Positions 56,884 through 63,923 of a stretch of 64,000 nt of DNA are shown in pieces (within the stretch, counting starts at the first letter, position 1; each line of letters starts with the position of its first letter). Both the position numbers and the translations under genes were made by a program. The stretch comes from Synechococcaceae cyanobacterium ELA739. Its GTDB lineage: Bacteria; Cyanobacteriota; Cyanobacteriia; PCC-6307; Cyanobiaceae. The DNA lies in contig JBAXXM010000006.1 in the NCBI GenBank assembly GCA_037127935.1, positions 86,579-150,578 of the forward strand. Reading direction: 5' to 3'. Below the pieces are notes generated by a model that did no database searches, was not told the DNA's origin, and saw nothing but the letters and a program-made list of their open reading frames with translations.

Positions 56884-57765
56884 ATGAGCGATCGCTTGCC
56901 TGTAGAGAACTGGGTCCTGGAACTGCTGCAGTGTCCAGATTGTGGCCACAACTTGAATGGCAAAGACAGCAGCTGGAGCTGTTCAGCCTGTGGTTTTGCA
57001 TCGCTCCATGCCCGCGATCTGCATGCGCAGTCTCCTTCGCCCATGACCCTCAGCCTGGCCAGAAAAGCCAGCTTTGCCCCACAGCAATGGCTTCTCGAGC
57101 GACCCACTTCGGCACCAGAATCGACCTATCGCGGCCCGGCCGCACTCAGGGACTCAACCGCTTTCCTTTCGGTGATGCAGGAGCAGCTGCCAGATCCAGC
57201 AAAGATGCTGGATCTGGGTTGTGGACCGAAGGATCAGAAAGCACCGATCGAGCATCTCGGTCATCAGTATCTCGGCGTCGACTTCGATTCGCAGCAGGCT
57301 GATCTGTTGGTGGATGCCCATGCCTTGCCGTTTCAATCGCAATCCTTTGACTGCATCTTTTCCTATGCCGTGTTGGAGCATCTGCACAACCCGTTTGTGG
57401 CGATGACTGAAATCGCCAGGGTGCTCAAGCCCGGTGGCCTATTCCTGGGCACGGTGTCCCAGGGAGAGCCGTTTCATGCCTCCTACTTCCACCACACGGC
57501 CTGGGGTCTGCTTTCGTTGCTGAGCCAGGTGCCGCAATTGAGTCCGAAGCGCCTCTGGCCCGCCATCGACACCCTCGACTCCCTGGCCAGCATGGGGCGC
57601 TATCCCAAGCCGATCCGCCAGGGCTTGGGGGCATTGGCGCGTCTGCACACGTCAGTCCCGCAGTTAGCACCCCGCAAAGCGCGTTGGCCAGAGAAGGAGC
57701 GGGAGATTGATGCGATCCATCGCGCTGGATCCATCGCTTTTGTGATAAAAAAGGTGGAGGCATGA
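56884..57765 (+). CDS. Class I SAM-dependent methyltransferase with N-terminal Zn-ribbon (Trm112-like)
   Basis: LQCPDCG..CSACG; LDLGCG; DAHALPF; VLEHL; RVLKPGG. Confidence 0.88.
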   Translation: MSDRLPVENWVLELLQCPDCGHNLNGKDSSWSCSACGFASLHARDLHAQSPSPMTLSLARKASFAPQQWLLERPTSAPESTYRGPAALRDSTAFLSVMQEQLPDPAKMLDLGCGPKDQKAPIEHLGHQYLGVDFDSQQADLLVDAHALPFQSQSFDCIFSYAVLEHLHNPFVAMTEIARVLKPGGLFLGTVSQGEPFHASYFHHTAWGLLSLLSQVPQLSPKRLWPAIDTLDSLASMGRYPKPIRQGLGALARLHTSVPQLAPRKARWPEKEREIDAIHRAGSIAFVIKKVEA

Positions 57766-59684
57766 AGAGGAAGAACGTCTCAGCCTGGCCTGCGCTTCTG
57801 GTGCTGAAAAATACTTTGCGCCCCTTTTTGGCGCCGGTTTTGGATTCCTCCCCAGCGGCTCGCCTGATCCGCCAGTCGGCCCGCCGCCAGTGGAAGTTGC
57901 TGGTCACCAGCGTGGGATCGGGGCTGCTGGGTTCGCTGAGTGAAGGCGGCACCCTGGGGGTGATCTTTCTGGCCGTCGGTCTGATGACCAGCAAGACGAC
58001 GGTCACCCTGGCCAAGTTGCCGGCTCTGCAGGGGATGCCCTGGCTGAAAGGAGTGCTCGATAGCCTTGGCCATTGGCCCAGCGAACTTAGCTTCCTGTTG
58101 TTGCTGGCCCTGGCGGTGGGTTTGCAGGTGCTGGTGAGCCTCTGCAATTATCTTAACGGTGTGGCCAGCGGCTATTTCGGTGCCAGGCTTAGCCGCGAGG
58201 TCACGGCACTACTGAATCGCAGGATCCTCAGTTTCAACTATGCCTGCGCCAGCAGTTACCGGGTTGGTGATCTGCTTGATTATGCTGCGGGTGCAGGTCA
58301 GACAGTCCAGAACCAGATCAACCTCGCCAATGGGTTGCTGCTCAACATCATGATGTTGGCTGTTTACCTCGGCATTTTGATCACCATCTCGCCCTGGCTG
58401 CTGTTGGTGGCGATCCTGCTGGCCGGTGCGCTAACAGCTGTACAACGGGTGCTAATACCACGTATTCGTACGAATGCCTACGAGCGCCAAGTCGTAGCGG
58501 TGGAAATCGGCAGTCGCATCACCGAAAACATCCAGGGTTTGCGGCTCTTGCATACAAGCGGTGGCTTAAAAGCGGCAGCCACTTATTTTGAATCTTTGCT
58601 TGGCGAGGACGAACGGGTCAAGCGCCGCAGCGCCCGGCTGGAAACCATCATCTCCCCGCTGTCTGCCTTGCTGCCGATCGTGGCCATCGCCCTGATCGCA
58701 GCTTTCAGCGTGGTGGTGTTCGCTAACCGGGCCAGTGGGGTTCTGCCAAGTCTGGTGACCTTTGTGTTGGCGCTCCAACGCCTCAACGTGCGCCTCAGCG
58801 CTCTGGCCAACCTGGCCACTGGCTATGCGAGCAGCACGGCCCAAGTCAAGCGGCTGAATACAATTCTTGCCGATTCGGACAAGCAATTCGTACGTCAAGG
58901 GGGGCTCTCATTCAAGCGGTTGCAGGGCGACATCCGGCTGGCCAATGTCAGCCTCCGTTATTCCTCTGACCTTCCCTATGCCCTCCAGGGCATTGAGCTG
59001 GTCATCCCCAAAGGTCAGACGGTGGCTTTGGTGGGGGCTAGCGGCGCCGGCAAAAGTTCAATCGCCGACCTGCTGGTCGGGCTCTACGTGCCCAGCCAAG
59101 GGGCAATTCTTATTGATGGGATGGACCTGCGAGAGCTGGATCTGGCCAGTTGGCAGCAGCATTTGGGCGTGGTGAGTCAGGACACGTTCCTGTTCAATGC
59201 CACCATTGCCCAGAACATTGCCTACGGCAGCCCCCACGCCGATCCCCAGGCCATCGAGGACGCGGCTCGCATGGCCCAGGCGGCGGGCTTCATCGAGGCC
59301 CTACCCAATGGCTACGACACCCTGGTGGGAGAGCGCGGCTACCGGCTCAGTGGCGGCCAGCGGCAGCGGCTTTCTTTGGCAAGAGCCCTGCTGAGGCAGC
59401 CTGAACTCCTCATCCTGGACGAGGCAACCAGTGCCCTGGATTCCCAAAGTGAGCGCCTGGTGCAGGAGGCGCTTGAGAGCTTTGAGCATGGTCATACGGT
59501 CCTGGTGATCGCCCACCGGCTGAGCACGATCGTCAATGCCGATCTGATCTGTGTGATGGAGCAGGGGCGCATCGTCGAGCGGGGTCACCATGGCCAACTA
59601 CTGCAGCAGGGAGGTCGCTATGCATCGCTCTGGCAGCAACAGATCAGCCAGCGAAAGTCGCTGGAAGTTTCCAACCAGGCCTAG
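57762..59684 (+). CDS. ABC exporter, TMD+NBD (HepA/MsbA-like)
   Basis: TM domain; [31 protein letters not shown]. Confidence 0.95.
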   Translation: MKRKNVSAWPALLVLKNTLRPFLAPVLDSSPAARLIRQSARRQWKLLVTSVGSGLLGSLSEGGTLGVIFLAVGLMTSKTTVTLAKLPALQGMPWLKGVLDSLGHWPSELSFLLLLALAVGLQVLVSLCNYLNGVASGYFGARLSREVTALLNRRILSFNYACASSYRVGDLLDYAAGAGQTVQNQINLANGLLLNIMMLAVYLGILITISPWLLLVAILLAGALTAVQRVLIPRIRTNAYERQVVAVEIGSRITENIQGLRLLHTSGGLKAAATYFESLLGEDERVKRRSARLETIISPLSALLPIVAIALIAAFSVVVFANRASGVLPSLVTFVLALQRLNVRLSALANLATGYASSTAQVKRLNTILADSDKQFVRQGGLSFKRLQGDIRLANVSLRYSSDLPYALQGIELVIPKGQTVALVGASGAGKSSIADLLVGLYVPSQGAILIDGMDLRELDLASWQQHLGVVSQDTFLFNATIAQNIAYGSPHADPQAIEDAARMAQAAGFIEALPNGYDTLVGERGYRLSGGQRQRLSLARALLRQPELLILDEATSALDSQSERLVQEALESFEHGHTVLVIAHRLSTIVNADLICVMEQGRIVERGHHGQLLQQGGRYASLWQQQISQRKSLEVSNQA

Positions 59685-59719
59685 GTTCATCCAAGACAGG
59701 CCGACCGCAATACTCAGTC

Positions 59720-62830: not shown

Positions 62831-63235
62831 ATGGGCTTGATACGAGGCGTTTTTATCCTCTCCAATCCCTCCAAACCCGAGTTGGCCTCGGTTGAGGTGT
62901 CTGCTCTGGCTGATACCGGCGCCGTGCACCTCTCCATCCCCGAGCACCTAGCGATTCAGCTGAGCCTGGCGGAACTGGAGCGGCGGGAGGTGGTGTTGGC
63001 CGATGGCCACAGGCGCAGCGTTCCTTATGTCGGTCCGGTGGAGGTTCGCTTCAAAAATCGCCGCTGCTTCACCGGTGCCATGGTGCTTGGTCATGAGGTG
63101 TTGCTAGGCGCGATTCCGATGGAGGACATGGACTTGGTGCTGCGCCCCCAACTGCAGAGCGTGGATGTGAATCCGGAAAGTCCCAATATCGCTGTCAGCC
63201 TGGCGAAGACAAGCGGCGCTGGTTGGTTGCTCTAG
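62831..63235 (+). CDS. Clan AA aspartyl protease, copy 2
   Basis: Same as copy 1 except HLCIP changed to HLSIP. Confidence 0.88.
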   Translation: MGLIRGVFILSNPSKPELASVEVSALADTGAVHLSIPEHLAIQLSLAELERREVVLADGHRRSVPYVGPVEVRFKNRRCFTGAMVLGHEVLLGAIPMEDMDLVLRPQLQSVDVNPESPNIAVSLAKTSGAGWLL

Positions 63236-63260
63236 GGTTTAGTTCTGATCAGGAGAGGGT

Positions 63261-63923
63261 ATGACGCTTGCTAGCAATCCATCTCCGCCCAGTTCAACTG
63301 AAGCTGCCCCTGCAATGGGCCCTCTGCTCCTTCCGCAGGAGCTTCAACTCACGCCTGAGCAGTTCGTGTTGCTCTGCGCTGCCAATCCAGAAGCGGTTCT
63401 TGAACTCGACGCCCAAGGCCATCTGATCAACATGACCCCTACCGGCGGTGACACCGGATCTCGCAATTCGCGTCTGTTGATGCGTCTGCTGCTCTGGGCC
63501 GATCGAACGGGCGGCTGGAAGGTGTTCGATAGCTCTACCGGCTTTCGCCTTCCCGATGGCTCCGTCCTCAGCCCCGATGCCTCTCTGGTAAGCCTGGAGC
63601 GCTGGCAGGCCCTGAGCCCCGAACAGCGACGCGGTTTCCCACCTCTCTGTCCCGATCTGGTGGTGGAGCTGGCCAGCCCCAGTGACGAAGGACCCACGGG
63701 TGTGAGTGCCTTGCGCCGCAAGATGGCTGGCTATCAAACCAATGGCGCTCAGCTGGGCTGGCTGTTGTTGCCGCAGGAGCAGGTGGTGGAGGTCTGGCCC
63801 GGTCGTCAGTCCTCAGATGGACCGCTACCAGAACCCCAGCGGCTGGAGGGCGTTTCGGAGCTAGATGGCGGCATGGTGTTGCCTGGCCTGCGGCTGGATC
63901 TTGAGGAGATCTGGAGGGGGTGA
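63261..63923 (+). CDS. Uma2 family endonuclease, copy 2
   Basis: N-terminal half identical to copy 1; 14 aa differences in the C-terminal ~100 aa. Confidence 0.93.
   Translation: MTLASNPSPPSSTEAAPAMGPLLLPQELQLTPEQFVLLCAANPEAVLELDAQGHLINMTPTGGDTGSRNSRLLMRLLLWADRTGGWKVFDSSTGFRLPDGSVLSPDASLVSLERWQALSPEQRRGFPPLCPDLVVELASPSDEGPTGVSALRRKMAGYQTNGAQLGWLLLPQEQVVEVWPGRQSSDGPLPEPQRLEGVSELDGGMVLPGLRLDLEEIWRG

Follow-up and report, generated by a model that had tools for sequence, protein, structure and literature searches.

Classical mobile elements are scarce in picocyanobacteria even though the islands that hold their surface-glycan and defence genes vary greatly, and a locus where the 3' end of one exporter gene occurs three times in succession raises the question of how such an arrangement arose at the border of an island. 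The locus lies near the edge of a window of 64,000 nucleotides (the whole stretch of DNA that was analysed) and reads, all on the forward strand, full ABC exporter, protease and Uma2, tail B, Rpn-type gene, tail C, protease and Uma2, where a tail is the 3' part of the exporter gene. The host is a freshwater Cyanobium-like picocyanobacterium and the array forms the variable right-hand edge of an island of genes for cell-surface polysaccharide, which has gmd, fcl, galE, a gene for a TIGR03790 protein, a methyltransferase and the HepA/MsbA-like exporter. Mapping of genes and repeats bore out this layout, which an initial annotation had described; its three C-terminal peptide endings match the translations as quoted, and the cargo it placed 33-55 bp behind each tail was measured at 35, 55 and 33 nt from stop codon to next gene. 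The similarity of the three repeats is far above chance (blastn), the coding space at 50-64 kb is fully assigned to families or genes, and the context of the array can be followed up to the window end, 77 nt past the second Uma2 gene. The same annotation saw no integrase, IS or inverted repeat, and the ORF and repeat searches agree, with no integrase or transposase among the ORFs tested across the window, no IS near the array and no inverted repeats at any junction. No tRNA occurs within 30 kb of the array, the sole tRNAs of the window being at 26 kb, and no Rfam match to an attC-like RNA was found in 50-64 kb at E values up to 0.1.

The gene at the head of the array (57762..59684) encodes a full-length fused TMD-NBD ABC exporter of 640 amino acids, allele A, with Pfam ABC_membrane and ABC_tran domains, for which the top NCBIfam matches are the HepA family (HepA_fam_ABC) and MsbA, both under cut-off. 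The stop codon of the methyltransferase gene that precedes it (56884-57765) overlaps the exporter start, and its full-length relatives on other contigs share 55-79% amino acid identity. When the window is compared with the related contig L054, identity is 55-72% in the membrane domain, 81-84% at the NBD end and about 90% or more in the flanks, with the surface-glycan genes, divergent interior and conserved flanks of a replacement flexible island. The membrane domain is hypervariable between strains, and the NBD 3' end, where conservation first becomes strong beyond it and before the next variable zone begins, is therefore a natural crossover zone. It is this part of the working gene (tail A, 59206..59684) that is repeated downstream, with blastn matching 59206-59656 to tail B at 60885-61335 (79% identity, E 5e-108) and 59388-59687 to tail C at 62501-62800 (about 80%).

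Tail B (60871..61354) is a 5'-truncated remnant of the exporter that runs from about amino acid 478 to the stop codon, with its start placed at ~60871 by nhmmer (E 6e-48) and the end of its frame at 61354. This pseudogene has two in-frame stops, and its Walker-B motif has changed from DEAT to DKAT (Glu-to-Lys); the translation has no frameshift, which corrects an earlier description. It clusters with the orphan tail of L046 (78% bootstrap), has a dN/dS of 0.22-0.37, and its type of ending is also present in the full-length exporter of L021. Immediately before it is the conserved 3' flank of the protease-Uma2 unit (60813..60870), which is common to six contigs and, judged by eye, loosely kept after copy C and in L049 and L050. 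As weak similarity between copies A and C, again judged by eye, extends ~60 nt beyond the Uma2 stop, tail B directly abuts the end of the unit. This Uma2-to-tail-B junction, J1, is found in at least six independent metagenome contigs from different samples (L054, L055, L057, L058, L074 and L075).

Tail C (62491..62797) is a shorter 5'-truncated remnant, from just before Walker B to the stop codon, whose start is put at about 62491 by nhmmer and which keeps an open frame of 99 amino acids at 62498-62797. It is separated from the Rpn-type gene by a spacer (62362..62490) that has no exporter homology detectable by nhmmer upstream of about 62491; the junction at which tail C begins is J2. A Rpn-spacer-orphan-tail junction also exists in L046, where about 50 nt of the spacer is common with the window (by alignment, with a shuffle control run), and the orphan tails of L049-L051 begin within about 10-40 nt of the point where tail C starts. 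Over about 300 nt tail C is 94-98% identical to L054 (dS 0.24, dN/dS 0.09) and it groups with the full-length exporters of L054 and L057 at 100% bootstrap, whereas its distance from tail A in the same genome is a dS of about 1.1, with dN/dS 0.08. That distance, together with the grouping of tail C with the exporters of other strains, rules out a simple duplication in place. In the tail tree the three tails are distinct alleles belonging to three clades common to other genomes, and the earlier view of them as diverged alleles that were not duplicated in place is upheld.

Both outer units carry the same pair of genes. Copy A of the clan AA aspartic protease (59720..60124; TIGR03698, 71 bits against a cut-off of 57.35) and copy C (62831..63235) differ by one amino acid and share the motif ALADTGAV with the active site DTG; copy A has 6859 homologues, with 80-98% identity among the 120 listed. 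The Uma2-family PD-(D/E)XK nucleases, copy A (60150..60812) and copy C (63261..63923), match PF05685 over its full length (E 6e-33 and 4.5e-33; profile positions 1-170/172 and 1-172/172) and are 93.6% identical in amino acids, with all differences in the C-terminal half. A weak PADLOC match of Uma2 copy A to PDC-S03 was seen, and the pair possibly has a role in defence or addiction. The middle cargo is a Rpn-type module (61374..62361, with boundaries taken from tandem Rpn copies in L049), whose gene (61410-62354) encodes a DUF2887 PD-(D/E)XK nuclease domain (Pfam E 7e-28), 4-amino-acid repeats and a DUF4351/RpnS-like C-terminus (E 6e-20). The repeats are encoded by 12-nt units at 62133-62192 (repeat family D5); by comparison L049 is short of one EGRQ and one GEAR unit, and it has a separate C-terminal ORF of 114 amino acids.

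DUF2887 is listed within the PD-(D/E)XK superfamily (PMC3424549), and Rpn-type modules, in which a nuclease gene contains its own antitoxin, act against phage in E. coli (PMC10400941). The cargo gene resembles these recombination-promoting nuclease toxin/intragenic antitoxin genes in its PD-(D/E)XK N-terminus, its 12-nt repeats encoding 4-amino-acid units of strain-variable number, its DUF4351 C-terminus and the stand-alone C-terminal copy downstream in L049. Unlike in E. coli, the N-terminus is the cyanobacterial DUF2887 and not the enterobacterial YhgA/PF04754, and the module is known here from its sequence.

Divergence between the outer units is far from even. Column by column, the A and C copies are about 80% identical in the tail, 100% over 629 nt (59876..60504, equal to 62987-63615) and about 88% at the Uma2 3' end, with the copies otherwise 74-95% identical around the tract. 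The claim of diverged copies thus holds for the alleles as such but not uniformly for A and C. The identical tract reads as the product of gene conversion or recent recombination, and with the mosaic identity it shows later homologous recombination or gene conversion. Amongst the relatives the cargo behind the exporter tail varies, which the initial annotation had proposed to tabulate, and includes protease-Uma2, Rpn, a Wzm fragment, rfbF, glycosyltransferases, IS elements and trmD. Orphan tail-protease units are found on other metagenome contigs, and in L049 the tail-protease-Uma2 unit is upstream, not downstream, of the full-length exporter. The orphan tails of relatives carry a stop codon (L049) or a frameshift (L051), and those of L049 and L050 differ by 1 synonymous and 4 non-synonymous changes, a pattern of neutral decay. 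The same signature recurs at a second gene, the methyltransferase of L054: a glycosyltransferase insertion of low GC lies there between two nearly identical copies, about 165 nt long, of the methyltransferase 3' end.

The reading to which we lean, by a modest margin of belief, is that a few homology-anchored displacement events occurred in the conserved end of the NBD, in an otherwise hypervariable exporter at the border of a replaceable glycan island. Two tail-creating junctions suffice, and both look old, as J1 is present in independent contigs at about 77-84% overall identity and J2 has a counterpart in L046. We infer the order of events and the mechanism as follows. On at least two old occasions foreign or sister DNA would have been joined to an internal point of the resident exporter gene, one join at about amino acid 478 (J1) giving tail B and another just before Walker B (J2) giving tail C. 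Each event would have placed a complete exporter with its downstream small genes in front, leaving the resident 3' end and the genes downstream of it behind, a sequential displacement anchored by homology at one end and joined illegitimately at the other. The orphan tails, having no function of their own, would then decay. As the orphan tails and the protease-Uma2 genes are still homologous to working copies, they may have been overwritten repeatedly, both through homologous recombination with DNA of other strains and through conversion inside the genome, and such overwriting would account for the open frame kept by tail C and for the 629-nt identical tract.

Some features of the locus run against displacement. 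Both the right end of the unit (~60 nt past the Uma2 stop) and the points at which the tails begin recur across contexts, which fits discrete cassettes better than random illegitimate ends, and J1 goes with the protease-Uma2 unit wherever a contig extends to it. Amongst the contigs compared, the window is the one place where the end of tail B leads into Rpn, and no related contig besides the window covers the whole three-tail array. These ends could be explained by an active, integrase-free cassette platform, for which we would allow perhaps an outside chance: units of tail, cargo and short 3' flank would loop out through RecA as hypothetical circles, at repeated tails or repeated cargo, move between strains, and re-enter when one crossover in the 3' end of the exporter duplicates the tail and pushes older units downstream. 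The order of the array with its 5'-truncated right-hand tails is the outcome of a Campbell-type insertion, J1 travelling with the unit is what circles predict, the tail-protease-Uma2 unit stands behind different upstream DNA in L049-L051, the glycosyltransferase insertion of L054 has its near-identical 165-nt target duplication, and recombination across the 629-nt tract could readily release a circle of 3.1 kb. A bolder form, in which the units are self-propagating and recombinase-free, with RecA circles that form once direct repeats of a conserved gene end flank an insert, carry their own homology arm and re-insert by single crossover into any strain with the gene, we rate slightly lower again; if true, the exporter 3' end, and the methyltransferase 3' end in L054, would give glycan and defence genes a portable site of attachment in picocyanobacteria without classical mobile elements. 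However, the junctions are old and common to strains rather than shuffled, the tail B allele is of the same lineage in every strain where resident-specific 3' parts would be predicted, there are only two types of cargo, the orphan tails decay, and no related sequence that might serve as a vehicle turned up in viral contigs. The initial annotation had proposed integrase-free accretion of an integron-like kind, and part of this stands, namely the want of a recombinase, the variable cargo and the conserved NBD 3' crossover zone. The active, integron-like system finds no support here, given the old and shared junctions, the decaying orphans, the same cargo pair behind tails A and C, and the unit upstream of the exporter in L049.

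Two other readings are each quite improbable. The direct orientation of two units with a 629-nt identical core could be taken as a tandem duplication of tail-protease-Uma2 within the lineage, followed by divergence and insertion of Rpn, but between tails A and C the synonymous distance is saturating and dN/dS is 0.08, tail C is nearest to the working genes of other strains with the three tails in three clades, and tail B overlaps both other tails, so that a single duplication cannot yield three. It is just as doubtful that the array is an assembly artefact, in which the identical core led variants of a single locus from different strains to be strung together. The source contig measures 201,855 nt in the protein database, an exact repeat of this size exceeds short-read length and could mislead a short-read assembler, which is a further point against displacement, and L054 does join a C-like 5' part to an A-like 3' part; yet the unique 2.5-kb stretch between the cores contains the two orphan junctions and has to occur, with core on either side, in some genome, J1 is present in independent contigs and a J2-like junction in L046. 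Less probable still, and scarcely credible to us, are remnants of site-specific integrative elements that targeted the exporter 3' end with a replacement tail, their integrases being lost or beyond the window. Tandem partial copies of a target are typical of repeated site-specific integration and the window does end just past the array, but integrase is absent from 50-64 kb and from all related contigs examined, the tail copies are 300-480 nt with differing 5' ends rather than a fixed att core, and units of 1.4-1.7 kb are too small for a recombinase of their own.

If displacement is the correct reading, the locus would be a readable record of how the border of an island changes, with a conserved gene end serving as the crossover zone, rare one-sided events leaving dated scars, and frequent homologous exchange then overwriting them. 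It would extend the displacement pattern of toxin loci to an ordinary exporter gene. The locus also draws attention to two recurrent passengers of borders like this one, the protease-Uma2 pair and a Rpn-type module of cyanobacterial kind. The circle model, if true, would explain gene-cassette mobility without recombinases, and on present evidence it is the minority reading.

Islands that target tRNAs or the 3' ends of protein genes are known; such an origin (e.g. tycheposons) was considered and rejected, there being no tRNA within that 30 kb, no integrase, and tail 5' ends that differ (amino acid 478 against about 537). An integron was likewise rejected, with no IntI in any ORF scanned and no attC-type inverted repeats at the junctions. 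The array is like an integron in being a directional series of small, promoterless-looking units beside a fixed point, and unlike one in having no IntI, attI, attC or folded recombination sites, its repeats being 300-480 nt of coding sequence. In replacement flexible genomic islands, glycan and O-antigen clusters are swapped through homologous recombination in the conserved sequence on either side, and the exchange is presumed to be linked to phage pressure (PMC4033161). The locus shares their surface-polysaccharide genes, divergent interior, conserved borders and crossovers at those borders, but clean double crossovers leave no orphan ends, and the tails here need an illegitimate or single-crossover step.

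Closer parallels for the tails come from toxin loci, and the claim that the pattern was new is not sustained in general, as the C-terminal displacement arrays of rhs, CDI and T6SS loci, for which homology-facilitated illegitimate recombination is the explanation given, share its architecture (PMC5361080, PMC3150448). In rhs and CDI loci 5'-truncated 3' fragments lie behind a full-length gene, each with a piece of the conserved core and its own downstream gene or genes (PMC3150448), and the orphan alleles match full-length alleles of other strains, with no dedicated recombinase taking part (PMC3150448; Jackson 2009 as cited in PMC5361080). In Vibrio cholerae, T6SS effector-immunity modules undergo sequential displacement by homology-facilitated illegitimate recombination, where new modules enter in front at a conserved upstream anchor and old genes are shifted downstream; the arrays are stable and later moved by ordinary homologous recombination, and the authors draw the analogy with integrons but reject it as there is no integrase (PMC5361080). 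As in these arrays, the full-length exporter is followed by 5'-truncated fragments that retain a conserved core (B from ~amino acid 478, C from before Walker B), and as in rhs and CDI loci the orphan alleles match the full-length exporters of other strains. The differences are in what is displaced: in rhs and CDI loci the displaced tip is a variable toxin and the downstream gene its immunity, whereas the exporter tails are the conserved part of a housekeeping-type exporter, contain the conserved NBD and no extra domain such as a polymorphic toxin, and decay, the variable payload being the unrelated downstream genes. Similarly, V. cholerae retains a useful immunity gene whereas the exporter fragments appear useless. 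Overall the pattern looks like the scars of a few old recombination events of a kind known from toxin loci, rather than a new integron-like machine.

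The ABC exporter that heads the array is a fused protein of 640 aa (57762-59684), its start overlapping the stop codon of the methyltransferase gene and its best NCBIfam matches, HepA-family and MsbA, both falling below cut-off. Starting 35 nt past the exporter stop is a clan AA aspartic protease of 134 aa (TIGR03698, above cut-off), next to which domain scans place a Uma2 nuclease of 220 aa. The short conserved 3' flank of Uma2 is directly abutted by tail B, the first of two orphan copies of the exporter's 3' NBD region (tail A, 59206-59684); by nhmmer it starts at about 60871 and in blastn 60885-61335 matches 59206-59656 (79%, E 5e-108), and its translation is free of frameshifts but is interrupted by two in-frame stops and carries Lys in place of the Walker-B Glu. 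A gene of 314 aa with DUF2887 and DUF4351 lies 55 nt beyond the tail B stop and, past a 130-nt spacer, tail C (about 62491-62797) begins just before Walker B with an open frame of 99 aa, with a second protease and second Uma2 lying 33 nt downstream and the window ending 77 nt past the latter. The ORF listing, self-BLAST and domain scans bear out the layout of exporter, repeated tails and cargo claimed in the initial annotation, which had also seen no integrase, IS or inverted repeat in the window. This too is upheld, as no ORF tested carried an integrase or transposase domain and a search for repeats found no inverted repeat at any junction. All coding space from 50 to 64 kb is assigned, the sole tRNAs of the window are at 26 kb and an Rfam search of 50-64 kb gave no match.

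The array forms part of a larger region that starts at 50 kb, where GC drops from about 0.69 to about 0.60. This low-GC stretch holds gmd, fcl, galE, two MntA-like nucleotidyltransferases, a TIGR03790 protein, the methyltransferase and the exporter, and is a surface-polysaccharide island. It opens with a 166-aa ORF (50475-50975) that has no Pfam match, and the sole match of a 385-aa minus-strand gene (55216-56373) is the uncharacterised TIGR03790 family. Behind the first MntA-like gene, and overlapping it, is a 131-aa ORF without a family match (together 54428-55196), which is read as a candidate HEPN-like partner, the second stands alone within the island (56518-56847), and both match the candidate family PDC-S09 of PADLOC. 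Upstream of the island the core genes ARC6-ffh-rpsP-phoH-FUSC-BaxI (43141-50181) are oriented like the exporter. In a Lake Mendota MAG locus (L002, compared over 15996-21843) the exporter adjoins trmD and era and faces these core genes, and also adjoins an SPFH gene which in the window (19946-20854) is 37 kb distant. By these gene orders, the position or orientation of the island differs from lineage to lineage.

The two units of tail, protease and Uma2 (copies A and C) align over 1428 nt with uneven identity, being about 80% identical in the tail, without any difference over 629 nt (59876-60504 and 62987-63615), and about 74-95% identical in the 3' half of Uma2. By eye a faint similarity extends some 60 nt beyond the Uma2 stop, therefore the end of the unit is the point at which tail B starts. 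By Nei-Gojobori estimates tails A and C differ with a dS of about 1.1 and a dN/dS of 0.08, their divergence having arisen nearly all under purifying selection, as in a working gene. The nearest relatives of tail C are the 3' ends of full-length exporters on two contigs, L054 and L057 (dS 0.22-0.24, dN/dS about 0.09, 94-98% nucleotide identity over about 300 nt). A neighbour-joining tree built on 225 nt groups tail C with these two genes (100% bootstrap) and tail B with an orphan tail on contig L046 (78%), and places tail A in a third clade (100%), together with full-length genes from L020, L072 and L074 and with L026, where the contig ends inside the gene. The ending QRKPALKA of tail B is found again in the full-length exporter of L021, in L044 and in L046. 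The proposal that the tails are diverged alleles and not local duplicates is upheld by the dS and the three clades.

The junctions themselves recur in relatives recovered by exporter scans of genomes and metagenomes and from the contexts of protease homologues. In L054, L055 and L074 the exporter, protease and Uma2 run through the same 3' flank into the same start of tail B, as they do in L057 and L075, where the contig start cuts the exporter, and in L058, which opens at the protease; these contigs come from several samples and have about 77-84% overall identity to the window. In L054 (5927-6442) and L057 (2260-2808) tail B breaks off after some 50 codons, where it is fused to a piece of an ABC-2 (Wzm-like) permease gene that lacks its 5' part. 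In L044 (448-1051) the same piece is preceded by a complete B-type tail; it is a further gene remnant of the same border zone. Comparable joins to that before tail C are found in L046, with the order Rpn C-terminus, spacer (about 50 nt in common with that of the window), orphan tail from Walker B on and rfbF, and in L049, with the order Rpn (88% aa), a stand-alone Rpn C-terminal ORF, a RES-domain gene, orphan tail, protease, broken Uma2 and exporter, the tail starting within about 10-40 nt of the start of tail C. L050 and L051 have the same orphan tail unit as L049. Decay of these tails is seen as a stop in L049 and a frameshift in L051, with one synonymous and four non-synonymous changes between L049 and L050. 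Taken together these shared sequences indicate that the tail junctions are old as well as real and are common to several contigs. Among the contigs compared, the window alone shows tail B running at its end into the Rpn gene, and none of the relatives' contigs spans all three tails.

Other contexts were met in the same scans. The second exporter of L049 (6018-8009), a different full-length gene (54% aa) with sugar-nucleotide genes, lies directly behind the unit ending in broken Uma2 and may hint at the sequence past the window end. In more distant relatives trmD (L001) or glycosyltransferases (L002, L024) lie behind the exporter. Directly behind the exporter of L020, the closest full-length relative (79% aa), two ORFs (6010-7666) resemble, by eye only, ISAs1-like and IS1595-like transposases.

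Several candidate features of the tails were tried and rejected. The 10-nt palindrome ATCAGCTGAT, which shortly precedes both tail C and the orphan tail of L049, was considered as a shared site and dropped as uninformative, since unrelated HepT genes contain it too and in L049 it codes for 'DQLI' within a PIN-like fragment. The spacer at 62362-62490 had looked by eye like a decayed exporter ('GYDTLVGE...'), a reading that is not supported: an nhmmer profile of nine full-length exporter genes gave nothing upstream of about 62491, and local alignment did no better than with shuffled sequence. A single identical 5' boundary for tail C and the L049-L051 orphans, suggested by MAFFT, is put in doubt by the profile alignment, in which the L049 tail may be longer by about 25-40 nt and contain a deletion; the boundaries do lie close together. 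For a promoter within the tails, which would explain why tail and cargo travel together, a consensus scan of 56-64 kb gave no candidate site, a result that is uninformative for cyanobacteria.

The 3' end of the exporter may owe its role to its conservation. Between the window and L054 the flanking genes have about 90% nucleotide identity or more and the NBD end 81-84%, with the membrane domain (57790-59140) at 55-72%, a low value that may reflect replacement of alleles or diversifying selection in the part that faces the substrate. Past this hypervariable segment, homologous pairing thus first becomes possible at the NBD end. L054 also has a low-GC glycosyltransferase insertion of about 1.4 kb between methyltransferase and exporter, with near-identical direct repeats on its two sides (950-1113 and 2528-2691; about 165 nt each) in which the 3' end of the methyltransferase gene is joined by the exporter's first 20 nt; the empty site in the window is at about 57620-57780. 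This insertion is the same signature as the exporter tails, at another gene end.

The cargo includes a gene of predicted defence function. The middle gene has a PD-(D/E)XK domain of the DUF2887 family, a family which PMC3424549 lists under that superfamily and reports to occur alongside transport proteins, a DUF4351 C-terminus and 12-nt repeats (62133-62192) encoding EGRQ/GEAR units, each type being one unit shorter in the L049 orthologue (121-1044). Downstream of the latter a separate 114-aa ORF (L049:1277-1621) holds the C-terminal DUF4351 part alone and resembles described stand-alone RpnS genes. Nuclease domain, repeats, DUF4351 and separate C-terminal ORF match the hallmarks of Rpn toxin/intragenic antitoxin defence genes (PMC10400941), and the middle gene is probably of this type; a PDB sequence search with it returned nothing useful. 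Uma2 has a weak match only, to a candidate defence family of PADLOC. The second protease found 6859 homologues (80-98% identity among the 120 listed), and those of at least 90% among the matches listed are always with Uma2 behind this exporter. The family also lies between hsdR and hsdM in type I restriction operons, where the protease gene overlaps the hsdR stop (L069:8001-8396, L070, L076-L083; about 87% aa to that of the window), behind cca (L060-L068) and ahead of WD40/caspase/TIR genes (L071), with homology between contexts limited to the ORF. Viral contigs scanned with Uma2, Rpn and protease gave no match.

The best-supported reading of the array, which we put at somewhat better than even, is that of static displacement scars. 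At least twice in the distant past, a complete exporter and the genes that follow it would have been set ahead of a resident exporter, breaking the resident inside the gene so that its 3' end and the genes next to that end stayed behind. For this step linear DNA could have recombined by the homology-facilitated illegitimate route, or a circle could have inserted through a single crossover. Inheritance of the array would have followed, with homologous recombination and gene conversion overwriting it again and again wherever it still matched working copies. Sequential displacement with later overwriting accounts for the distinct alleles, shared junctions and mosaic identity, for the low dN/dS of orphan tail C, and for the decay of tail B and the relatives' orphans.

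An active system of circular cassettes, carrying portable homology arms and needing no recombinase, has in its favour the recurring unit ends and the L054 insertion, both of which lean to a circular route. It is unlikely nonetheless, as a B allele that is the same throughout, old junctions and units that are not shuffled all lean to rare one-off events; it is a minority reading that deserves a direct test. Duplication in place is given small weight, the single-event form being rejected by the dS between A and C, the foreign full-length kin of tail C and the three-clade tree, because the tails are separate alleles shared with other genomes. An assembly artefact, set beside joins recurring in several samples, and degenerate site-specific elements, set beside the lack of recombinase domains in the ORFs tested, are likewise given small weight. 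The observation itself is confirmed and the interpretation partly supported: of the integrase-free, integron-like accretion first proposed, separate alleles and the absence of a recombinase stand, and the integron-like system is not supported.

In a limited search of the literature no description of this pattern was found for ABC exporters or picocyanobacteria. The array lacks both features of integrons that were tested for, integrase and attC. Its architecture is that of rhs and CDI C-terminal displacement arrays and of Vibrio T6SS effector-immunity arrays, for the last of which this mechanism has been put forward and a likeness to integrons drawn and then set aside (PMC5361080, PMC3150448). 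Unlike in these, an ordinary exporter has its conserved end repeated, without a toxin tip, and the fragments kept appear useless. The locus also behaves like replacement glycan islands, which are exchanged via conserved flanks (PMC4033161), and is a fresh example of an already known kind of recombination scar array.
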